Shown here piece by piece: positions 1 through 64,000 of a DNA stretch of 64,000 nucleotides. The DNA comes from an uncultured Alphaproteobacteria bacterium (GTDB lineage: Bacteria > Pseudomonadota > Alphaproteobacteria > HIMB59 > GCA-002718135), in the NCBI GenBank assembly GCA_902615745.1, contig CACMQB010000003.1:40041-104040 (forward strand), given 5' to 3'. The number at the start of each line of letters is the position of its first letter. Positions within the stretch are counted from its first letter, which is position 1. A program made the position numbers and the translations under genes. Under the pieces are notes generated by a model. The model worked only from the letters and a program-made list of their open reading frames with translations. It had not been told where the DNA came from and did no database searches.

Positions 1-1007
1 TATGTAAAGATATTGCGGAATTGAATAAAACAAAAAAAATTGTGATTGTGTGTTCTGGCGCTATTGCATTAGGTGCAAAAAGTATTTCAAATACAAAGTT
101 AAGAAAATTAGAAGATAAACAAGCAGCAGCTTCAGTTGGTCAAATTGAATTAGCCCATCAATGGCGAAATAAACTAGGAAAATACAAGATAGGTGTTTCT
201 CAAATTCTATTAACATTAGAAGATAGTGAAGAAAGGCGACGATATTTAAATGCTAGAAATACAATATCATCATTACAAAGCAAAAACATAATCCCAATCA
301 TTAATGAAAATGACACTGTTGCTACTGAGGAAATTCGCTATGGTGATAATGATAGACTTGCAGCACGAGTAGCACAGATGATTGAAGCTGATTTATTAAT
401 TTTATTAAGTGATATTGATGGGTTGTATCAAGGTAATCCAAAAAAAGATAAGGATGTCGAAAAAATTTCAGAGATATTTAAAATTGATAAAAAAATTGAA
501 GAACTTGGAAATTATCAATCTTCTGAGCTAGGTAGTGGAGGAATGGCCACAAAAATTTTAGCGGCAAAGATAAGTGCTGAAAACGGTTGTGCTACGATAA
601 TCACCAATAGTGATAAAAACAAACCAATTAGTGATATTAATAAAAAAAATTCAACAATTTTTTATCCCTTAACTTCTACAAACTCGTCCAAAAAGAAATG
701 GTTATTAAATCATTTAAAACCATCAGGATCCATTATTATTGATGCAGGAGCTAAAAATGCAATTTTAAAAAATAAAAGTCTTCTTCCTGCAGGTGTAATA
801 GATATCAAGGGAAGGTTCAAAAGAGGCGATGTAATATCTATCTTAGTTGAGAATGGTCAAAAGGTAGCAATAGGCATATCTGCTTATGATTTTAATGATG
901 CAAAAAAAATTATTGGAAAGAAAAGTAAAGAAATTTATAAAGTTTTAGGTTTCGAAGGAAGAGATGAAGTGGTACATAAAGATAATTTAGTTAAGCTTTC
1001 TACATGA
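1..1007 (+). CDS. proB: Glutamate 5-kinase (5'-truncated by the window edge)
   Basis: Motifs NENDTV, GDNDRLAA and GSGGMATK plus a C-terminal PUA domain (SLLPAGV). The frame is open back to base 3, so the true start lies upstream of the window. Confidence 0.96.
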   Translation, partial: CKDIAELNKTKKIVIVCSGAIALGAKSISNTKLRKLEDKQAAASVGQIELAHQWRNKLGKYKIGVSQILLTLEDSEERRRYLNARNTISSLQSKNIIPIINENDTVATEEIRYGDNDRLAARVAQMIEADLLILLSDIDGLYQGNPKKDKDVEKISEIFKIDKKIEELGNYQSSELGSGGMATKILAAKISAENGCATIITNSDKNKPISDINKKNSTIFYPLTSTNSSKKKWLLNHLKPSGSIIIDAGAKNAILKNKSLLPAGVIDIKGRFKRGDVISILVENGQKVAIGISAYDFNDAKKIIGKKSKEIYKVLGFEGRDEVVHKDNLVKLST

Positions 1008-2257
1008 GTATTGAAAATAATATTATTGAATTAGGCAAAAGAGCAAAATCTGCCTCTCTAAATATGAAAGTCTGTAGCAGTGATCAAAAAAATCTTGCTT
1101 TAAAAAAACTCACTAAAAATTTAGATAAAAATAGAAGTAAAATTCTTGAATCTAATAAAATAGATTTAGAAAATGGTGAAAAAAAATCTTTAGCTAAGCC
1201 TTTAATAAATAGACTTACATTAACTGAAAAATCTATTGATGGATTGATTACATCAATTGAAGATATAATCGAAATACCAGATCCAATTGGAATTACATTA
1301 GAAAAATGGGAAAGACCTAATGGTTTGCAGTTTCGTAAAATTTCAACACCACTTGGAGTATTAGGTGTGATTTATGAATCCAGACCGAACGTCACTGTTG
1401 ATGCGTCTTGTCTTTCTATAAAATCTGGCAATTGTATAATTTTAAGAGGTGGTAGTGATAGTTTTCATTCCTCTAAGGAATTGGTAAATAATATTACAAA
1501 TGCTTTCACAGAAGCTGGCCTCCCTGAACATTGTGTCCAAATGATTAATACACCTAAAAGAGAAGCGGTTGATCATTTGCTAAGCATGAGAGATTATGTT
1601 GACGTCATTATTCCTAGGGGTGGCAAAGGTTTGATTGAAAAAATTAATTCAGCAAGCAAAATACCCGTTATCAAACATTTAGATGGTATATGTCATGTGT
1701 ATGTAGATAAAGATGCTGATTTAAGTATTGCAGAAAAAGTAGTTTTTAATAGCAAAATGAGACGTCCTGAAATTTGTGGTGCTGCAGAAACACTTTTAAT
1801 TGATGAAAAAATTAAAGACGAAGCAATGAAAATTTTAAAACCTCTAAAAGAAGTAAATTGTGAAATTAGAGGTGATGAATATATTCAGTCTTTAGATAGT
1901 GATTTTAAAACGGCAAGTGAAGAAGATTGGTCATTAGAATATTTAGATAAAATTTTATCAGTAAAAATTGTTTCAGGAGTTGATGAAGCGGTTAAGCATA
2001 TAAATGATTATTCTTCTGGACATACGGAAAGTATAATTACAGAAAGTGAAAAAACCTTTGAAAAATTTTATAATAAGATTGACAGCGCAATAATACTTAA
2101 AAATGCATCTACACAATTTGCGGATGGCGGTGAATTTGGTTTTGGTGCTGAGATAGGAATCTCAACAGACAAAATACATGTGAGAGGACCAGTGGGAACA
2201 AAACATTTAACTACATTTAAATATGTAGTTAATGGTAATGGCCAGGAAAGACCTTAA
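1004..2257 (+). CDS. proA: Gamma-glutamyl phosphate reductase
   Basis: IYESRPNVT, ICGAAETLL and NASTQFADGGEFGFGAEIGIST motifs; ATGA overlap with proB. Confidence 0.97.
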   Translation: MSIENNIIELGKRAKSASLNMKVCSSDQKNLALKKLTKNLDKNRSKILESNKIDLENGEKKSLAKPLINRLTLTEKSIDGLITSIEDIIEIPDPIGITLEKWERPNGLQFRKISTPLGVLGVIYESRPNVTVDASCLSIKSGNCIILRGGSDSFHSSKELVNNITNAFTEAGLPEHCVQMINTPKREAVDHLLSMRDYVDVIIPRGGKGLIEKINSASKIPVIKHLDGICHVYVDKDADLSIAEKVVFNSKMRRPEICGAAETLLIDEKIKDEAMKILKPLKEVNCEIRGDEYIQSLDSDFKTASEEDWSLEYLDKILSVKIVSGVDEAVKHINDYSSGHTESIITESEKTFEKFYNKIDSAIILKNASTQFADGGEFGFGAEIGISTDKIHVRGPVGTKHLTTFKYVVNGNGQERP

Positions 2258-2836
2258 TTGAAAAAGATTGGACTTCTAGGAGGGTCTTTTGATCCACCAC
2301 ATCGAGGGCATCTATTTATTTCAAATGAAGCTAAAAAAGTATTACAGCTAGATGAAATTTGGTGGCTAGTTACACCTCAAAACCCCTTGAAGATTTCAAA
2401 GCCCGCAACATACGAAGAGAGATTACAAAATTGTAGACAAATTACAAAAAATTTTCCTATAAAAATATTAGAAGTAGAAAAAAAAATTAAATCTCAATAC
2501 TCTTATCAAACAATTAAATTTCTAATTCAATATTATAAAAATATTAAATTTGTTTGGTTAATGGGTGCAGACAATTTAGTTAATTTCCACGAATGGGAAA
2601 AATGGCAATCAATTTTTCATATTATCTCTATTGTTATTTTTAGAAGACATGGATATAATACGAGTGCTTTGAAAAGTGTTGCAGCAAAAAAATTTATTCA
2701 TCATAAATATATAGCTCAAGACATAGAACATGTTTCAAAAAAAATTCCTGCATGGACTTTGATTCAAAATAAAGAAATTAAAATTTCATCATCTGAAATT
2801 AGAAATCAAAGAAATAAATTAAGAGGCAAATATTAA
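2258..2836 (+). CDS. nadD: Nicotinate-nucleotide adenylyltransferase
   Basis: GGSFDPPHRGH (HxGH), WLMGADN and ISSSEIR motifs; canonical position after proA; TTG start. Confidence 0.93.
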   Translation: MKKIGLLGGSFDPPHRGHLFISNEAKKVLQLDEIWWLVTPQNPLKISKPATYEERLQNCRQITKNFPIKILEVEKKIKSQYSYQTIKFLIQYYKNIKFVWLMGADNLVNFHEWEKWQSIFHIISIVIFRRHGYNTSALKSVAAKKFIHHKYIAQDIEHVSKKIPAWTLIQNKEIKISSSEIRNQRNKLRGKY

Positions 2837-2849
2837 TAAAGTTACTTCA

Positions 2850-3185
2850 TTGACAGAAAATATTGTATCAATACTAAGTGATGCAAAAGCTGAAGATATA
2901 AAAATTATTGATTTATCTAATAAATCATCCGTTGCTGATGCCTTTGTAATTGCTACCTGTAGGTCAACTAGACATTCAGATGCTACAGCAGACGAAATAG
3001 TAAAAAAATTAAAAAAAGAAGGGATAAAGTGTCCAAATCCTGAAGGAAGACCTCAATGTGACTGGATAATTGTTGATGCAGGTGAGATTATTGTTCATTT
3101 GTTTCGACAAGAAATTAGAGAATTATATGCATTAGAAAAATTATGGGAAGTAAGCTTTGATTCTTCACAAACTAAACTAGCTTAA
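2850..3185 (+). CDS. rsfS: Ribosome silencing factor RsfS (iojap)
   Basis: DAKAEDI...EG...WIIVDAGEIIVHLF...RELYALEKLW; follows nadD; start codon uncertain. Confidence 0.93.
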   Translation: MTENIVSILSDAKAEDIKIIDLSNKSSVADAFVIATCRSTRHSDATADEIVKKLKKEGIKCPNPEGRPQCDWIIVDAGEIIVHLFRQEIRELYALEKLWEVSFDSSQTKLA

Positions 3186-3190
3186 AATAT

Positions 3191-4486
3191 ATGATAATTT
3201 CAAAAAATGTTTTTTTAAAAGTAATACTACTGCTCACCCTCATTACACTTCTTGCACCTAAAACATATGGATCTTCTTCAGATGAAGAAAAATATAAATA
3301 TTTAGATCTATTTGGACAAGTGTTTGACAGGGTAAGATCTTCCTATGTGGAAGAGGTTACGGATCAAGAATTAATTGAAAAAGCGATTGATGGAATGTTG
3401 TCAGGTTTAGATCCTCATTCTGGTTTTATGAATGAAGAAGTATTTCAAGAAATGCAAATGGATACAGAGGGTAAATTTGGTGGATTAGGTATTGAAATTA
3501 CTATGGAAGAAGGTTTTGTGAAAGTCATTGCTCCGATAGAAGATACGCCTGCATATGATGCTGGAGTTCTTGCAGGTGATTATATTATTCAAATAGACGA
3601 AACACCTGTTTTTGGTCTAACTCTAAATGAAGCTGTTGAATTAATGAGAGGCAAAAAAGGGGAGTCAATAGTAATTACTATTTCAAGAGCAAATACTGAA
3701 CCCTTTGAGATTGAAATTATCAGAGATTATATCAAAATTAGATCAGTTAAAAGTGAAGTGCTTAACAATATTGGATACTTAAGAATAACATCTTTTAATG
3801 AACAAACAGAAAGTGGTCTTCTAAATGCTATAAAAAAGATTGGACAAGAAAATAAAATAAAAGGTTATGTTTTAGATGTACGGTCAAACCCAGGCGGTCT
3901 TCTTACACAAGCAGTTAAGGTAACGGATATATTCTTGGCAAGAGGAGAAATTGTTTCAACAAGAGGTAGAGATAAAAAAGACATAAGAAGATATCGTGCA
4001 AAAAAATCTGATAGAACTAATGGAAAACCACTTGTTGTAATTATTGATGGTGGTTCTGCATCAGCTTCTGAAATTGTTGCAGGCGCACTTCAAGATCATA
4101 AAAGAGCAATCATTATAGGTACACAATCTTTTGGAAAGGGTTCAGTTCAAACAATAATTCCTTTTCAAGTTTCAAATAGTGATAATCTAACTGGTATAAG
4201 ATTAACTACCGCCAGATATTATACTCCTTCAGGTGAATCAATCCAAGGTAAGGGGATCGTACCAGATATAATCATTGAACAAGGAGAATTTGAATCTTTT
4301 GATTATAAAAGATTTTCTGAATCAGATCTAAAAGACTCTCTTGATAAAGATAATGAAGAAGATGTTGAAGAAAATGAAGATAATGAATTAAGTGAATTTG
4401 AAAAACGTTTAGAGATTGATTATCAACTTCGAAGAGCCTTTGATCTTGTGCAAGGTGTAAGTCTCTTTAATGAAACTCAAGAATAA
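3191..4486 (+). CDS. ctpA: S41 family C-terminal processing protease
   Basis: Signal peptide, PDZ domain (GLGIEI), DVRSNPGG, SASASEIVAGALQD and SFGKGSVQ motifs. Confidence 0.93.
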   Translation: MIISKNVFLKVILLLTLITLLAPKTYGSSSDEEKYKYLDLFGQVFDRVRSSYVEEVTDQELIEKAIDGMLSGLDPHSGFMNEEVFQEMQMDTEGKFGGLGIEITMEEGFVKVIAPIEDTPAYDAGVLAGDYIIQIDETPVFGLTLNEAVELMRGKKGESIVITISRANTEPFEIEIIRDYIKIRSVKSEVLNNIGYLRITSFNEQTESGLLNAIKKIGQENKIKGYVLDVRSNPGGLLTQAVKVTDIFLARGEIVSTRGRDKKDIRRYRAKKSDRTNGKPLVVIIDGGSASASEIVAGALQDHKRAIIIGTQSFGKGSVQTIIPFQVSNSDNLTGIRLTTARYYTPSGESIQGKGIVPDIIIEQGEFESFDYKRFSESDLKDSLDKDNEEDVEENEDNELSEFEKRLEIDYQLRRAFDLVQGVSLFNETQE

Positions 4487-4488
4487 TA

Positions 4489-4959
4489 ATGCAAAAAAAA
4501 TATAGAAAATGTGTGGGAATGATGATTCTCAATGCAAGAAATCAAATTTTAGTTGGTCGAAGATTAGATCATCCAAGTGGATATTGGCAAATGCCTCAAG
4601 GTGGTATCGATGAAAATGAAAATCCTGAAGAAGCAGTTTGGAGAGAAATGATGGAAGAGATTGGTACGAATAATGCATCTTTGATTAATTCATCACAAGA
4701 ATGGATCTCTTATGACATACCTACAGAAACACTCAATACATTACCTTGGGGTGATAAATACATAGGTCAAATTCAAAAGTGGTTTTTATTTCGTTTTACA
4801 GGAATTGATAAAGACATAAATGTAGGAACAGAAAATCCTGAGTTTAGTGAATGGAAATGGATGGACTATGATGAAATTAGCCAAAACGCAGTACCATTTA
4901 AAAGAAATGTTTATATAAAAATTCAAAAAGAATTTAGAAGTAATTTAGTTAAAGTTTAA
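4489..4959 (+). CDS. rppH: RNA pyrophosphohydrolase (Nudix)
   Basis: WQMPQGGID..E.PEEAVWREMMEEIG Nudix box, GQIQKWF, PEFSEWKW; typical position after ctpA. Confidence 0.92.
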   Translation: MQKKYRKCVGMMILNARNQILVGRRLDHPSGYWQMPQGGIDENENPEEAVWREMMEEIGTNNASLINSSQEWISYDIPTETLNTLPWGDKYIGQIQKWFLFRFTGIDKDINVGTENPEFSEWKWMDYDEISQNAVPFKRNVYIKIQKEFRSNLVKV

Positions 4960-4971
4960 TTTAGAAAGAAA

Positions 4972-5369
4972 TTAAATTTTATGGTAATAATTTACATTTA
5001 TTGCTTCTAATTTTGCTTTAGCTACAGATAGTTGCTCCTCTGATTCTTTACCTTCTTTATTTTCTAATTCTTGTATTTCTTTTTCAATTGATGTTTTTTC
5101 TAAAGAATTAACTTCAACAACACTTTCTGCAAGAACAATACATTTTTCGGGATTGATTTCTGCAAAACCACCAGAAACAAAAAAGGATTTAATTAAATTT
5201 TTATCTTCACTGTATACCATAACTCTTCCTGGTCTAAGAGAGGACATGACCTTACTATGTCCTGGTAAAATACCTAAGTCGCCATCTTTACCAGGGACAA
5301 TTATAGTACCAACTTCATCATTGAAGACAAGGTTTTCTGGAGAAACTAAATCAAAAGAAATTGTTGCCA

Positions 5370-57177: not shown

Positions 57178-59727
57178 TTAAAGAAGTTTTTCTAAGACTG
57201 CAAAGGGAGAATTAGGGTCTTTTTTAGTTTCATTTATTTTAGTTTTTTTATTATTTATTTTTACTTTATTTTTTTTTGTAATTTTTTTAATTTCTTTTTT
57301 ATTATTTTTTAAAAAATATAACTTTTTTTTATCATATGTAGCTAAATAATCGTAACCACAAAAAACCATAATATCTTTAAGTTGATCACTATTACATCCA
57401 ATTGGGTTCATCAAATCAGAAGATTCCAAAAAAGGACCTTTTTTTATTTTTTGCCTTGCTAAGAAAAAAATTTTTTCAAATACATCAATTCTAAATACGA
57501 AACCTTTAATATTGATATAACCAATAGATTGCCAATAATTATCGGGCATTTTAATCTCTGATATAAATGATACTCTTCCATTTTGTGGTAATGGTAAAAA
57601 ATTATCTAATTCACTTTTGTAGAAAGTTTTCCATAAAATTGCACAAAACTCCAATGGTTTTTTTTTTAATAAATTTGGTATAAAAAAATATTTTGCTCCA
57701 ATCCTAATACCAAGTTTCGAAAGTTGAAGTTTACTCTCTTGTGAAATTGTTTTTAAGTTATATTTAAATGTTTCAACTGGATAGTTTCCAAAATTCTCTA
57801 AACAGTTAAAAACAATTCCTCTTATTTCTGAATTCATTTCTTCATCTAAGTTTTTTGTAAGAGGATGAATTGTATCATTTATTTCATTGTCTAACCATTT
57901 TTGAAGTTTTGCAGATATCAATAATTTATTTTCTGAAGATAAATATTCAGAATTTAAAGCTTCGGCAAAAGGTTTATAAATTGATCTACCTTTTTTTATT
58001 TTTCCAATTGCTTCTTCTCCCCAACAAATTAAAGTTTCATCTTTAATTTTAGATTTACTAATATCCTCAAATCTAATCGATTCTAATGGTGCATTCAAAA
58101 AATTATTTACTTTTTCATCAATCATTTTTCTTACAGATTTTTTTATATTACTAATCGAAAAAAGGGATTGTGAAAATATTTTTTTATCCTCAATAAGATC
58201 AAAACCCCTAATAATTCCATATTTTGTATTATCGAGATAAATTTTATTGTCATTTTTAATAAGAATATCTTCGACATCTTGAAATGTAGGTTTGCTAATG
58301 AAATATTTAGATGAGTAGTCTATAAATTTTTTTGTAAGACTTTCATGTAATTGATCTGATAGATTATTTTCTATTTGATGAGTTTTTTCTTTCCAAAAAT
58401 ATTTCTTTTTGAGCCAGTCATGATTATTAGAAATATATGTCCAGGTTCTTATTTGTGAAATTTTTATTGATAACTCAGGTATACCTCCGCCAAAGTTATC
58501 AAGTCTACTTACTTTTTTATCTATCCATTCTTCAGGTAGTTTGTAATTGTTTTCTATTAATGTAAGAAATATATCTTTTAAAAGTAATAAGTAATTATCA
58601 TTAAATAATTTTTCAAAATCTGGTATTTGGCAAATATCCCAAAGTAATTTTAAATTTAATTTTGATTCTAAATTATTTCTTATTTCTTTATCATCTATTA
58701 AAGAACGAAAATTAATTTCATCCAAAGCATTTTTTTTATGAATAAAATAACTTTGTATTGGATATTTTTTTAATGATGATAATAATAAATCAATAGAGTC
58801 AAAATTAAGATCGCTATTTCTCCAATAAATCTTTTGAATACTATCAAAGTTATGATTTTCTATTTGCTGTATTACCAATGGATCTAAATTACCAGCTTCT
58901 TTTGTATAACTGAAAGTTCCATTTTTTTTATATCTACCTGCTCTACCCGCTATTTGACCAATTTCGTTAGGAGCAAGATTTCGATTATATCTGCCATCAA
59001 ATTTTTCTAATGATGAAAAACTTACATGATTTATATTTAGATTCAAACCCATTCCAATAGCATCTGTAGCTACCAAGTAATCAACGTTTTTATTTTCATA
59101 TACCTCTACTTGAGCATTTCTAGTTCTTGGGCTAAGTGAGCCTAAAACAACTGCGGCTCCACCTTTGTGAGTTCTAATATTTTCAGCAATTTCATAAACT
59201 TTGTTTATATTGAATGCAATTATTGCAGATCTAGGCTCAAGTTTAGAAAAATTTTGCTTCCTTAAAAAAGTAAGTTGTGAAAATCTACTTTTTTTTTCGA
59301 TAGTAATATTAGGGTAAATTTTTTTTAATATATTTTCTATGTTTAAAGATCCTAAAAATATAGTTTGAAAATTACCTTTTTGATTTAAAATTCTATCTGT
59401 AAAAATATGACCTCTTTCATAATCAGCTGCAAGTTGGATTTCATCAATTATTAAACAATCTACAGAAATATTATTAGGCATTGACTCCACAGTACAAAAA
59501 AAGTATTTGGCTTCTTTAGGAATAATTTTCTCTTCACCAGTTATTAAAGCTACATTGCTAATCCCAACTCTTTTTACTGCTTTGTCATAATTCTCTCTAG
59601 CAAGTAATCTTAACGGAAAGCCGAATACTCCCGAAGAATATGTGAACAGTTTTTCAAACGCTGTATAAGTTTTTCCAGTATTAGTAGGCCCAAGTATTGC
59701 TAACAAATTTTCGTCTGCATTAGACAT
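57178..59727 (-). CDS. SUV3-like SF2 helicase (alphaproteobacterial MgpS type)
   Basis: GPTNTGKT, PLRLLARE, DEIQ, ATDAIGMGLN and QIAGRAGR motifs, plus the C-terminal DPNSPFAVL motif. Confidence 0.9.
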   Translation of the reverse strand: MSNADENLLAILGPTNTGKTYTAFEKLFTYSSGVFGFPLRLLARENYDKAVKRVGISNVALITGEEKIIPKEAKYFFCTVESMPNNISVDCLIIDEIQLAADYERGHIFTDRILNQKGNFQTIFLGSLNIENILKKIYPNITIEKKSRFSQLTFLRKQNFSKLEPRSAIIAFNINKVYEIAENIRTHKGGAAVVLGSLSPRTRNAQVEVYENKNVDYLVATDAIGMGLNLNINHVSFSSLEKFDGRYNRNLAPNEIGQIAGRAGRYKKNGTFSYTKEAGNLDPLVIQQIENHNFDSIQKIYWRNSDLNFDSIDLLLSSLKKYPIQSYFIHKKNALDEINFRSLIDDKEIRNNLESKLNLKLLWDICQIPDFEKLFNDNYLLLLKDIFLTLIENNYKLPEEWIDKKVSRLDNFGGGIPELSIKISQIRTWTYISNNHDWLKKKYFWKEKTHQIENNLSDQLHESLTKKFIDYSSKYFISKPTFQDVEDILIKNDNKIYLDNTKYGIIRGFDLIEDKKIFSQSLFSISNIKKSVRKMIDEKVNNFLNAPLESIRFEDISKSKIKDETLICWGEEAIGKIKKGRSIYKPFAEALNSEYLSSENKLLISAKLQKWLDNEINDTIHPLTKNLDEEMNSEIRGIVFNCLENFGNYPVETFKYNLKTISQESKLQLSKLGIRIGAKYFFIPNLLKKKPLEFCAILWKTFYKSELDNFLPLPQNGRVSFISEIKMPDNYWQSIGYINIKGFVFRIDVFEKIFFLARQKIKKGPFLESSDLMNPIGCNSDQLKDIMVFCGYDYLATYDKKKLYFLKNNKKEIKKITKKNKVKINNKKTKINETKKDPNSPFAVLEKLL

Positions 59728-59731
59728 CAAA

Positions 59732-62374
59732 TTATGCAGCTTCTGATATTATTTCATTTAAAACGTAATTTAAAATTCCTCCTGCTTTATAATATTCAAG
59801 TTCTTTATTAGTATCAATTCTACACTTTAAATGTATTTTTTTAGTCTCTTTAGAATAAATTTCACAATTAAGAATAGCTCCTGGTTTTATTTTAGACAAA
59901 CCAAGAATAGAGATGATTTCTTCACCCAAAATATTAAGATTTTTTTTGTTTTCATTATTAATAAATTCAAGAGGTAAAACTCCCATTCCTATTAAATTTG
60001 ATCTATGAATTCTCTCAAAACTTTCAGCAATTACTGCCCTAACACCTAAAAGTCTTGTTCCTTTAGCTGCCCAATCCCTAGAAGAACCAGTGCCATATTC
60101 TTTACCTGCTACTATAACTGTATCAATATTATTCTTAATATATTCTTGAGCCGCATCATATATTGACATTTGTTTATTTGAAATAAAAGATTTTGTGTAG
60201 CCTCCTTCCACATTATTTAGAATCTGGTTTTTAATTCTTATGTTAGCAAATGTACCACGCATCATAATTTCGTGATTACCCCGTCTGGATCCGTACGAAT
60301 TGAAATTTCTAGAATTAATTTGTCTATCTGTTAAATAAACACCAGCTGGACTATCTTCCTTAATGCTTCCAGCTGGTGAAATATGGTCTGTTGTTACACT
60401 GTCACCTAGTAGAGCTAATATTCTCGCTTTTTTTATATCTTTTAACTCAAATTTATTTTGTGTATCAAAAAAAGGAGGATGTTTTATATAAGTACTAGTA
60501 TCGCTCCAATCATATGTAGTATCTTTGGAATTGTTAATTGACTTCCAATTATGATCACCTTTGTAAATTTCTTTATATCTGTCTTTAAACATTTCTGGTG
60601 TCAAACATAAACTTAGTGTTTGATTAATTTCTTTATTTGTTGGCCATAAGTCTTTTAAAAATATCTCTTTTCCAAATTTAGATTTACCTAAAGAGTCAGT
60701 TGTAAGATTAATATTAATATTACCTGCAATTGCATAAGCAATAACAAGGGGTGGTGAAGCTAAAAAATTAGCTTTCACTTCTTGGTGAACTCTACCCTCA
60801 AAGTTTCTATTTCCAGATAAAACCGAACAAACTGTCAAATTATTTTTTTTAATTTCATTAGATACCCATTCATCTAAAGGACCAGAATTGCCAATACAAG
60901 TTGTACATCCGTAGCCAACAGTATTGAAGCCAAGCTTATTTAAATAAGTAGATAGATCAGCTTTATCTAGATAATCACTAACAACTTTACTACCTGGTGC
61001 TAAACTTGTTTTAACCCAAGGCTTAACTTCTAAGCCCAAATTAATTGCCTTTTTAGCAACCAAGCCAGCAGCAATCATTACATTTGGATTTGAAGTATTT
61101 GTACAACTAGTAACTGCAGCTATTACAATATCACCTGTATTTAACTTATTTTTAGTTTTATTTGAACTATTATCTATCTTACTAAATTCAATTGGAACCT
61201 CTTTCAAAAGAATTTTATCTTGTGGTCTTTTTGGTCCAGCTAAACTTGGTTCAATTGAATTTAATTCTAATAATATTTTGTCTGAATATTCAGGTGCATA
61301 ATTTGCATCTGCCCATAGAGTTTGCTTTTTTGAATATTGTTCAACAATATTTAGATGATCATTATCTTTGCCAGTTAACTTAAGATAATCAATAGTTTCT
61401 TCATCAGTCGGAAAAAAACCACAAGTTGCTCCATACTCTGGAGCCATATTTGAAATTGTAGCTCTGTCAGCTAATGATAAACTTTTTAAACCTGTTCCAT
61501 AAAATTCTACAAACTTTCCAACCACTCCTTTGTCTCTAAGAATTTTAGTTATAGATAAAACTAGATCAGTTGCAGTAATTCCCTCATTCAATGATCCTTT
61601 TAATTCAAAACCAATAACGTCTGGAATATTCATAGAAATTGCTTGACCTAGCATTGCAGCCTCTGCTTCTATGCCTCCAACTCCCCATCCTAAAACAGAG
61701 AGTGAATTAACCATAGTTGTGTGACTATCAGTTCCTACTACTGAATCTGGAAATAAATAGTTTTGATTTTCAATTTGTTTAATCCATATTGTTTTAGCAA
61801 TATTTTCTAGATTTACTTGATGACAAATTCCAGCTCCTGGAGGCACGAGATAAAAGTTATCAAACGAACTTTGTCCCCATTTTAGAAATTCGTATCTTTC
61901 TTTATTTCTATCAAATTCTTTTTTTACATTTTCTTTCAAAGCATTTTTATCTTTATAATTATCAACCATAACGGAATGGTCTATAACTAGATCTACTCTA
62001 GAAAGTGGGTTTATTTTTTTTGGCTCAATTCCTTTTAATTTTAATGCATTTCGCATTGCTGCAAGATCAGCTACAGCTGGGACACCTGTAAAGTCCTGCA
62101 TTAAAACACGTGTTGGGAAAAAAGCTATTTCAATTTTTTCATCTTTTTTATTTTTTTCTTTTAAGTAAGGGATCAAATTAGAAATCATCTCTTTACTAAT
62201 ATTCTCTCCATCTTCATTCCTAAGAAGATTTTCAATTATTATTTTAATTGATATTGGAATTTTATTAAGATCAATATCAAAGTATTCTGCTAATTTATTC
62301 AAATCAAAATATTTAAAATTTTGATTATTTATTTCAATTATATTTTCAGTATTAAAAGAATTTATATTTTTCAT
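59732..62374 (-). CDS. acnA: Aconitate hydratase A
   Basis: QDFTGVP, DHS, GTDSHT, TSCTN, GCTTCIGNSG and SGNRNFEGR motifs; start placed at the ATG at 62374. Confidence 0.97.
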   Translation of the reverse strand: MKNINSFNTENIIEINNQNFKYFDLNKLAEYFDIDLNKIPISIKIIIENLLRNEDGENISKEMISNLIPYLKEKNKKDEKIEIAFFPTRVLMQDFTGVPAVADLAAMRNALKLKGIEPKKINPLSRVDLVIDHSVMVDNYKDKNALKENVKKEFDRNKERYEFLKWGQSSFDNFYLVPPGAGICHQVNLENIAKTIWIKQIENQNYLFPDSVVGTDSHTTMVNSLSVLGWGVGGIEAEAAMLGQAISMNIPDVIGFELKGSLNEGITATDLVLSITKILRDKGVVGKFVEFYGTGLKSLSLADRATISNMAPEYGATCGFFPTDEETIDYLKLTGKDNDHLNIVEQYSKKQTLWADANYAPEYSDKILLELNSIEPSLAGPKRPQDKILLKEVPIEFSKIDNSSNKTKNKLNTGDIVIAAVTSCTNTSNPNVMIAAGLVAKKAINLGLEVKPWVKTSLAPGSKVVSDYLDKADLSTYLNKLGFNTVGYGCTTCIGNSGPLDEWVSNEIKKNNLTVCSVLSGNRNFEGRVHQEVKANFLASPPLVIAYAIAGNININLTTDSLGKSKFGKEIFLKDLWPTNKEINQTLSLCLTPEMFKDRYKEIYKGDHNWKSINNSKDTTYDWSDTSTYIKHPPFFDTQNKFELKDIKKARILALLGDSVTTDHISPAGSIKEDSPAGVYLTDRQINSRNFNSYGSRRGNHEIMMRGTFANIRIKNQILNNVEGGYTKSFISNKQMSIYDAAQEYIKNNIDTVIVAGKEYGTGSSRDWAAKGTRLLGVRAVIAESFERIHRSNLIGMGVLPLEFINNENKKNLNILGEEIISILGLSKIKPGAILNCEIYSKETKKIHLKCRIDTNKELEYYKAGGILNYVLNEIISEAA

Positions 62375-62605
62375 GCTAAATTGATTAATAATTATAATAT
62401 TTAAATAGTATGAAGATAAATTTTTGTATAGCAAAATGTTTATTTATTATAAGTTTTCTGCCAAAAATATAAAATTAAGTTCCTAATTTTTTTTGTTAAT
62501 TTTTAAAAAGAAATAATACGAAACTTAAATCAAATTAATTTTTAAATATTGGTATATTGTTGACTTTAACCGTAAGTTTTGGGAATAAATGCATAGCCTT
62601 TTATA

Positions 62606-62668
62606 ATTATCGCTTAGGCGATGATGGAGGGAGGTTCCTCCGGGGTAACAAAATACAAGGAGTATTTT
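62606..62668 (+). promoter_or_regulatory. Structured 5' leader of the poly-lysine protein gene
   Basis: Hairpins ATTATCGC-TTAG-GCGATGAT (62606-62625), GGAGG-GAGGTT-CCTCC (62626-62641) and AAAATAC-AAGGA-GTATTTT (62650-62668); the last one contains the SD. Confidence 0.65.
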
Positions 62669-62845
62669 ATGGCTAAGAAGAAAAAGAAAGCTGCTCCAAA
62701 GAAAAAGAAAAAAGCAGCTCCTAAGAAAAAGAAAAAAGCAGCTCCTAAAAAGAAAAAGAAAAAAGCTGCGCCTAAGAAAAAGAAAAAAGCAGCTCCTAAA
62801 AAGAAAAAGAAAAAAGCTGCTAAAAAGAAGAAAAAGAGAAGATAG
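62669..62845 (+). CDS. 58-aa lysine-rich, histone H1-like/protamine-like protein, MA(K5-6AAP)n...RR
   Basis: AAGGAG SD, synonymous variation between repeat units, downstream terminator; 37 Lys, 2 Arg and no acidic residue. Confidence 0.85.
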   Translation: MAKKKKKAAPKKKKKAAPKKKKKAAPKKKKKKAAPKKKKKAAPKKKKKKAAKKKKKRR

Positions 62846-62912
62846 TAATATCTCAAATTTTCAAGAAAACTTTAATTTAAAGTTTTCTTTTTCTTATCTT
62901 TTTCAAAAAGAT

Positions 62913-62938
62913 AAAACGGGGTTCTGCCCCGTTTTTTT
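62913..62938 (+). terminator. Rho-independent terminator
   Basis: AAAACGGGG-TTCTG-CCCCG followed by T7. Confidence 0.85.
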
Positions 62939-62973
62939 ATTGTTTTAAATCAAAAAGTAATTAGATCTTAATT

Positions 62974-63579
62974 ATGATAATTGTTAAAGATTTAACAGTG
63001 GAAAGATTAGATAAAAAAATATTTGAAAATATCAATCTGTCTCTTGCATCTGGAAACATAACTATTTTAAAGGGTAAAAATGGTTCTGGTAAAACTACAT
63101 TTTTAAAAACAATATTAAATTTAATAGCGCCATCATTTGGATCAATATATTGGAAAGGAAAATTATTAAGAACAAATTTATACGACTTTTATAATAACGT
63201 TACATATATTGCTGATAAAACAACTAGCTTAACAAAATTAAGTGTCAAAGATAATATTAATATTTGGAGAAAAATTTTTTTATCGAATATTAATGATTCT
63301 CAAATTGAAGTTGCTTTAAAAACTTTAAAATTAGAAAACTATTTGAATCAAAAAGTTACAACTTTATCTTTAGGAGAAACTAAAAAATTAGAATTATTAA
63401 GATTAATAATAGAAAACAAAAAAATTTGGGTCCTTGATGAACCTTTATCAAGTTTAGACGATGATTCAATTGAATTAATTAAACAAACTTTTGAAGATCA
63501 TTGTGCTAAAGAAGGGTCAATAATTTTTAGCTCACATCAGAATCCTGGGATCTATGTAACAGAAGAAATTCATCTATAA
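62974..63579 (+). CDS. ccmA: Heme export ABC ATPase CcmA
   Basis: GKNGSGKTT, LSLGE signature, WVLDEP and SSH motifs; acnA/ccmA divergent synteny. Confidence 0.9.
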   Translation: MIIVKDLTVERLDKKIFENINLSLASGNITILKGKNGSGKTTFLKTILNLIAPSFGSIYWKGKLLRTNLYDFYNNVTYIADKTTSLTKLSVKDNINIWRKIFLSNINDSQIEVALKTLKLENYLNQKVTTLSLGETKKLELLRLIIENKKIWVLDEPLSSLDDDSIELIKQTFEDHCAKEGSIIFSSHQNPGIYVTEEIHL

Positions 63580-63582
63580 AAA

Positions 63583-64000
63583 ATGAAATTTTTAAAAAAA
63601 ATAATTTTTTTCTATTACAGAGAATACAAATTAAATCTTAGTGGTATTCAAGATATTTTAACCAATATTATTTTCTTTTTTGTATCGATTTTCATATTCA
63701 TTTTTTCTATTGGCCCAGATAAGGAAACAATTTCTTTCATAGGAGTGGGTATCATATGGACATTATTATTACTAAGTTCAACATTATCTTTAAGGAAATT
63801 TTATCAAGAAGACTTTGAAAATGGAAATTTATTTATTATGCATTTAAATGGATTTAGCTTTGGTTTTATTGCTATTTTGAAAACATTTTCACATTTTTTA
63901 TTTGTGCAGGTACCTTTTCTATTATCAATACCGATTGCATGCATCTTACTAAATATTGCTAATGATAAACTCTTCTACTTATTTGCTAGTTTTAGCATAG
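63583..64000 (+). CDS. ccmB: Heme exporter permease CcmB (3'-truncated by the window edge)
   Basis: Own translation: MKFLKKIIFFYYREYKL...FSIGPD...GIIWTLLLLSSTLSL.KFYQEDFENG; follows ccmA. Confidence 0.85.
   Translation, partial: MKFLKKIIFFYYREYKLNLSGIQDILTNIIFFFVSIFIFIFSIGPDKETISFIGVGIIWTLLLLSSTLSLRKFYQEDFENGNLFIMHLNGFSFGFIAILKTFSHFLFVQVPFLLSIPIACILLNIANDKLFYLFASFSI

Follow-up and report, generated by a model that had tools for sequence, protein, structure and literature searches.

The window analysed here, a stretch of 64,000 nucleotides from an uncultured marine alphaproteobacterium of the order HIMB59 in which positions are counted from the first letter, contains a real, conserved, stand-alone and strongly transcribed coding gene for a protein of 58 residues, two-thirds of which are lysine. 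On balance, this polylysine protein is probably a polycation that coats polyanions without specificity, in the manner of a histone H1 tail or of Hc2, with the nucleoid as its likeliest target.

The ORF occupies positions 62669..62845 of the + strand including the TAG stop, with the ATG at 62669-62671 and the TAG at 62843-62845 (58 codons, ATG + 57), and its translation, MAKKKKKAAPKKKKKAAPKKKKKAAPKKKKKKAAPKKKKKAAPKKKKKKAAKKKKKRR, corresponds to the layout MAK5(AAPK5-6)5AAK5RR. The composition (K37 A13 P5 R2 M1) comprises 39 basic and no acidic residues, in agreement with an earlier sequence-only reading of this DNA, which had described a protein of 58 residues with 39 basic ones, no acidic ones and only M, A, K, P and R. 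A mass of 6613.5 Da is predicted (6482.4 Da once Met1 is removed), the pI is 12, and the product is modelled as an intrinsically disordered polycation carrying a charge of about +39. A Shine-Dalgarno (SD) sequence, AAGGAG, lies at 62657-62662, 6 nt 5' of the ATG at 62669, and the strong SD that had been noted from the letters is thus present. A longer frame of 74 residues starting from the ATG at 62621 was rejected: it is only the translated leader, the extension is not conserved, and in three relatives a stop codon abuts the ATG of the shorter frame. A scan for basic ORFs found only this one of the kind in the source genome, which has 1.48 Mb, a completeness of 88.5% and a G+C content of 28.8%.

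The survey of relatives came out in favour of the sequence-only reading on the conservation of the frame. An intact polylysine frame was found in 44 of the 44 related genomes read (one locus per genome), which belong to two families, and all 44 loci have an ATGGC start, an SD, a C-terminus rich in K and R, and a stop. The SD is AAGGAG in the own genus and TAAGGAGG in the sister family. The length of the ORF ranges from 47 to 144 aa among these genomes (47, 55-59, 73, 74 and 81 aa in the own genus, 117-144 aa in the sister family), and every change of length is in frame. Among the ten copies of 58 aa there are 12 variable columns, 11 of them at codon position 3, and the single replacement is P/T.

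A DNA search matched 36 of 41 related genomes, and the strict protein pattern KKAAPKKK...AAPKKK was found in 92 of the 186 species genomes (two families) that make up the order, many of those lacking a match being only 50-80% complete, while a reversed-pattern control gave 0. Assembly breaks add to the misses, because in three assemblies a contig has its first letter no more than about 120 nt from the lysine repeat (G075:C3:52, G076:C12:117 and G077:C15:118, loci L045, L048 and L049). Short-read assemblies apparently break at the gene, and an apparent absence from an incomplete genome is unreliable. One genome of the genus matches the pattern twice, the second time (KKAAPKKKAAPKKK, G069:C16:24029-24070) on another contig than the usual locus, which is on C13.

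The codons of the ORF are arranged in a peculiar way. AAG accounts for 16 of the 37 lysine codons, as compared with 12.6% genome-wide (730 long ORFs), and the longest run of A has 6 letters. When codons were drawn at the genome frequencies, the longest run averaged 17.4 letters, was never shorter than 9, and in none of 100,000 trials had 6 or fewer; when the observed codons were kept and only their places were shuffled, the mean was 13.6, again with 0 of 100,000 trials at 6 or below. In all 44 copies the AAG share is 0.40-0.69 and the longest A run 5-9. Long A runs also slip during replication and transcription. Selection opposes long, slippage-prone A runs at this locus, and the frame must be kept, as in a translated gene. 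Iterated AAA codons lead to less protein output via ribosome sliding, according to the available part of the report PMC4363877. We infer that the polylysine ORF is translated, and its codon arrangement would then be a natural example of how long lysine runs are encoded while poly(A) slippage is avoided.

The same data bear on the reading that the + strand is non-coding here, an A-rich tandem repeat or an ncRNA, or that the real gene is an F-rich ORF on the minus strand (62614-62856), which we regard as scarcely credible. The antisense frame of 80 aa is indeed open, the RNA contigs described below are strandless, and the excess of changes at position 3 is no proof of strand, because the sense and antisense frames share their wobble positions, so that this excess fits both. 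Against this, the ATG and the SD are found on the + strand in 44 of 44 genomes. Of 42 loci, 22 offer the antisense frame no start codon ahead of the repeats, and in the other 20 the 20 nt 5' of its TTG, GTG or ATG contain nothing resembling an SD. Moreover, silent CCA/CCT changes in the sense frame amount to Phe/Leu changes on the other strand, and the promoter, the SD and the T run of the terminator are all + oriented.

Upstream of the gene, a conserved promoter region extends over 62556..62607 (+), which contains the invariant block ATTGTTGACTTT..CGTAAGTTTTGGGAA and scored 10/12 in a promoter scan. Its candidate hexamers are TTGACT at 62561-62566, which goes with the invariant block, and TTGGGA at 62579-62584, the latter followed after a 17-nt spacer by TATAAT at 62602-62607. 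The 120 nt upstream have a mean identity of 87% over 31 distinct sequences, in all of which the block is invariant, and it is unique in the genome; TGTTGACTT recurs 5' of the sister-family copies.

The 5' leader (62608..62668, +) contains hairpin 1 at 62608-62623, hairpin 2 at 62626-62641 (GGAGGG/UCCUCC) and the SD at 62657-62662. Its fold of -21.8 kcal/mol (z -3.4 vs shuffles) consists of two hairpins and places the SD in a loop. The structured leader proposed earlier therefore stood as far as folding is concerned, the sequence folding better than its shuffles, but support from covariation was weak: among 31 sequences 95.2% of cells pair, with a compensatory change in 1 of 19 pairs (2 sequences), the majority of the pairs being invariant; in helix 2, 4 of 6 pairs never vary and zero compensatory changes were seen, and 6 of the 31 have a broken helix 3.

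Downstream of the stop, two A+U-rich hairpins of genus-conserved sequence lie in the 3'UTR at 62863-62889 and 62894-62914 (+), followed by an intrinsic terminator at 62913..62942 (+), in which a hairpin with the stem ACGGGG/CCCCGU (62913-62935) precedes a T run (62936-62942), as the sequence-only reading had it. The segment 62840-62945 folds with -29.7 kcal/mol (z -6.3), and terminator-like sites in the region number 2, as compared with 0.2 expected from shuffles. The terminator is kept in all the loci displayed, loop changes being present, and RNA contigs stop at 62917-62923. In the sister-family loci L018-L020, about 30-60 nt past the stop of the K-rich frame, the terminator loop is TATAAT (GCGGGT-TATAAT-CACCCGC), and the T run reaches right up to the ATG of ccmA; one might speculate on a promoter inside the terminator or on a leaderless ccmA.

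The gene lies, in the position claimed for it, between the aconitase gene acnA (59732-62434, -) upstream and the + strand genes for an ABC ATPase (62974-63579, Pfam ABC_tran) and for CcmB (Pfam CcmB), which starts at 63583 and runs off the window at 64000. The name ccmA for the ATPase is plausible, as CcmB comes next. On the other side of acnA, positions 57178-59730 (-) encode a protein of 850 aa with a Suv3-type DEXQ helicase domain (PF22527, 96 bits) and Helicase_C. In the sister family the K-rich gene is located between a Suv3-like helicase gene, the homologue of the 850-aa one and directly upstream of it, and ccmA-ccmB. The conserved partner is accordingly the downstream ccmAB, because the sister family has ccmA-ccmB but no acnA. 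It is plausible that the polylysine gene forms its own transcription unit, from which read-through into ccmAB is possible, and its expression may be controlled.

Hairpins and a terminator directly 5' of ccmA, in an order kept in two families, could also belong to a regulatory ORF, a leader or attenuator rich in lysine codons that governs read-through into ccmAB. Some likeness to known leaders was seen in Rfam, namely to the L20 leader with 24.1 bits (cut-off 58.7) and to the Phe leader with 20.4 (55), but the 23 matches at E up to 10 were all under their gathering scores, the best having 29.9 bits vs 54. This reading is most improbable on several counts. The downstream genes, ccmA and ccmB, export haem and are unrelated to lysine; frames of 47-144 aa with conserved repeats and C-terminus are far beyond the size of classical leader peptides; and 17 nt separate the stop from the first 3' hairpin, with no segment in the folds that could act as antiterminator by complementarity to the terminator arm. 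In addition, the placement of AAG codons favours efficient translation over stalling.

The high expression that had been predicted was supported by marine RNA. In 20 RNA runs, about one-tenth of the sampled words from a 3-kb stretch around the gene were present (word shares 0.07-0.12, values uninformative on habitat). Contigs were mapped from four marine metatranscriptome runs of four studies, and in these the summed contig depth was 117-1953 over 62616-62716 and 817-5358 over 62717-62817, as compared with 0-93 in the flanking bins; the bins over 62212-62615 had zero contig cover in all four. Since the repeat part can draw contigs of other organisms, the contigs that cross a junction were relied on. 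Two of them span leader and CDS (62620-62703, with 1 other letter and a depth of 87.9; 62634-62713, with 0 other letters and a depth of 431.2), and three span CDS and 3'UTR (62801-62917, 62825-62920 and 62819-62923, depths 11-33). Near-identical acnA or ccmA contigs from the same runs (188 nt with 0 other letters, 157 with 1, 151 with 0, 214 with 2) had depths of 2-6.5, a comparison in which the leader is near-invariant in the genus and its contigs may pool many species, while those of the neighbours are species-specific. DNA carry-over is an unlikely source, because the depth across leader and CDS is 88-431 vs 2-6.5 for the neighbours. Junction contigs deeper than the neighbours were obtained in 4 of 4 runs; the contigs are strandless and without true ends, their level is rough, and their limits are not equated with the start or end of transcription.

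Database searches with the 58-aa protein gave no family. Pfam-A (hmmscan, 0 families at E up to 10), NCBIfam and a PDB sequence search (E up to 10) had no match, and in a phmmer search vs 5.8 billion proteins none of 8000 candidates scored reached E 0.001; the composition correction of HMMER penalises such a sequence, so that these profile negatives are weak evidence and do not speak for uniqueness. AlphaFold, run on the single sequence, gave a pTM of 0.27 and one C-terminal helix only, which together with the lack of Pfam, NCBIfam and PDB matches agrees with the claim that there is no folded domain. An exact look-up of eight forms (of 58, 74 and 73 aa, the antisense 80 aa and four relatives) in a collection of 15 billion proteins found all of them absent, but the ESM Atlas contains the 58-aa sequence letter for letter. 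The expectation that gene callers would miss the gene consequently holds for the former resource and fails for the latter. The nearest ESM Atlas clusters are 'hypothetical proteins' of 50-79 aa without Pfam families; in the nearest cluster with any Pfam family (score 0.87), 17% of the members carry HC2, which is a lead only.

A literature search found no description of such a protein for SAR11, Pelagibacter or related bacteria, and no study of tail-only K/A/P mini-proteins. The available portions of PMC5069720 contained no earlier mention of the gene in the main text, nor of ccmA in the supplement, and none of the gene was found in PMC2704228.

As regards known systems, the likeness to H1 tails, Hc2 and AlgP that the sequence-only reading had put forward stood in composition and style of repeat, while homology is not demonstrable. 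The eukaryotic H1 C-terminal domain, the tail-only H1 of kinetoplastids and the protamines are disordered and neutralise the charge of DNA in a non-specific way. The polylysine protein resembles them in K/A/P composition and predicted disorder, with a charge density near that of the protamines; in contrast, it has no winged-helix globular domain, takes its charge from lysine and not from arginine, and is bacterial. No linker histone H1/H5 winged helix (PF00538) was recognised by Pfam or PDB matches or as a compact modelled fold, nor is an HU/IHF fold (PF00216) joined to the tail, the ATG being preceded by in-frame stops or by an unconserved leader.

Hc2 (HctB, PF07382) is likewise a stand-alone, unfolded protein of short lysine-rich repeats whose number varies between strains, and the polylysine protein shares with it the wholly repetitive, lysine-rich make-up, the lack of a folded domain and the variable number of repeats (47-144 aa). 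However, Hc2 is a chlamydial protein of 165-237 aa with pentamer repeats, whereas the HIMB59-order protein has 58 aa, 67% of them basic, a unit of 8-9 residues (K5-6AAP) and a free-living marine alphaproteobacterium as host; the Hc2 profile was not matched in Pfam-A at E up to 10, which for such a sequence is weak evidence. Hc2 binds DNA, as stated in the accessible part of PMC2848022.

The KPAA domains of Pseudomonas AlgP and PhaF also consist of Lys/Ala/Pro repeats and are predicted to be disordered and H1-tail-like. There the KPAA part, with 1 Lys per 4 residues, is a tail on a folded or coiled N-terminal domain, while the polylysine protein has no other domain and 5-6 lysines per unit; the AlgP/PhaF layout, in which KPAA comes after an N-terminal helical or phasin domain, is absent from it, all 58 residues being repeat. 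From the available portions of PMC9239181 and PMC11894788, the KPAA-repeat tails of AlgP and PhaF bind DNA.

By analogy with these proteins, the polylysine protein would be a tail-only nucleoid protein of the H1, Hc2 or protamine kind. After removal of the Met, its K5-6 blocks would bind the phosphate backbone of nucleic acids without sequence specificity, and the AAP spacers would serve as flexible turns, like the (S/T)PKK and KPAA motifs of H1 tails and of AlgP/PhaF. In a very small cell, many copies might then offset the charge of the AT-rich chromosome and compact or bridge it. DNA is probably the ligand, in preference to RNA or polyphosphate, and nucleoid compaction the outcome, yet two HU/IHF-family (PF00216) genes are already there, on other contigs, and no vacancy for a nucleoid protein is evident. 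DNA is also not the sole candidate ligand, because PhaF repeats bind RNA, AlgP is found on polyphosphate granules, and the genome has ppk1.

A role directed at RNA or the ribosome, as an rRNA or mRNA binder, translation activator, RNA chaperone, ribosome-condensing protein or extra ribosomal protein, is less probable, and we would rather not expect it. In its favour, the KPAA repeats of PhaF activate translation and bind RNA 5' of SD sites, in so far as PMC12818456 was available; a high RNA level would suit a ribosome-associated protein, and the motif is fused elsewhere to trigger factor, to an S1-like protein and to Obg. On the other hand, the sequence has nothing that would give RNA specificity and no match to a ribosomal-protein family, and a variation of the repeats over 47-144 aa would be unusual at a fixed ribosomal site.

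With still lower probability, the partner could be polyphosphate, whose granules the protein would coat or tether as AlgP does, or with which it would form polyphosphate-protein coacervates. AlgP localises to polyphosphate granules and its KPAA domain is needed for granule spacing, as given in the accessible parts of PMC9239181 and PMC11894788, and a gene for Ppk1 of 704 aa is present in the genome. This ppk1 gene is, however, on another contig and shows no linkage to the polylysine gene; moreover, the protein lacks an N-terminal domain like that of AlgP, its 58 aa being all repeat, and the RNA samples are of ordinary seawater, for which a connection with starvation is not known.

Returning to the coating polycation with the nucleoid as target, a more far-reaching version may be proposed tentatively, although we doubt that it will hold: in this group of very small, streamlined marine bacteria the main counter-ion of the chromosome would be a ribosomally made oligolysine (a 'bacterial protamine'), expressed far above the level of housekeeping genes from codons arranged for translatable lysine runs, with dose and repeat number setting the compaction, and partly replacing polyamines. 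A nitrogen-expensive, lysine-rich protein that is kept in a streamlined oligotroph would imply a strong need for it. If the peptide is as abundant as the RNA suggests, it would be an overlooked main polyanion-binding component of an abundant group of marine bacterioplankton. Trypsin would shred the peptide, profile searches find nothing and assemblies sometimes break at the gene. It may also serve as a chemically synthesisable model of H1-tail-like compaction.

Proteins of this general type are found far beyond the order. Of 401 genomes sampled from the class, 8 contain the strict pattern, 4 of them outside the order; in these other alphaproteobacteria (L055-L058) KKAAPKKK forms a short tail at the C-terminus of trigger factor (3) or topoisomerase I (1). 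A scan of 185,579 species genomes (one each) gave at least 120 stretches, of which 80 loci were sorted: 22 are short closed frames (<=110 codons) encoding K/A/P-only proteins, 9 are longer ambiguous frames, 21 are tails or regions of larger proteins (SWIB-domain proteins, topoisomerase I, trigger factor, HU, S1-like and others), and 28 run off the locus. Four of the 22 short closed frames belong to the own lineage and 18 lie outside it; the latter, under a conservative rule, have 20-107 aa, are K/A/P-only and start with MA(T/K)KK. Their hosts are Chitinophagaceae and other Bacteroidota, Acidobacteriota (Solibacteraceae), Saccharibacteria, Thermodesulfobacteriota, a gammaproteobacterium, Planctomycetota and archaea.

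Tail-only K/A/P mini-proteins, alike though not demonstrably of common descent, are thus widespread, in many phyla. Those outside the lineage have blocks of K2-4 and by eye about half of their residues basic, with K5-6 blocks in none displayed, and the densest version among the loci sorted is that of the own genus (67% basic, K5-6 blocks). Should the far-reaching version with oligolysine as main counter-ion be true, such mini-proteins would form a general, overlooked layer of bacterial chromatin.

Three minor observations were made in the course of these scans. At L070, L072, L089, L104 and L115 (Bacteroidota, Ignavibacteria, Zixibacteria), N-terminal K/A/P repeats are followed by a C-terminal domain, which looks SWIB/MDM2-like by the motif ...PRTEAVKKIWAYIKANKLQD.... 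Outside the window, the scan of the source genome for basic ORFs also gave an ORF of 42 aa (MEIKKKVKKRNPYAQDLKLPKYKQRIVRNKKTYTRKGKKKVI; G000:C4:4168, +), presumably resembling ArfA-type peptides (alternative ribosome-rescue factor). A second ORF outside the window, of 27 aa with 59% K/R (MGYPKKHRGRRKRGSKYRRNKKRQKKK; G000:C1:48843, -), could be due to chance or encode a small ribosome-associated protein.
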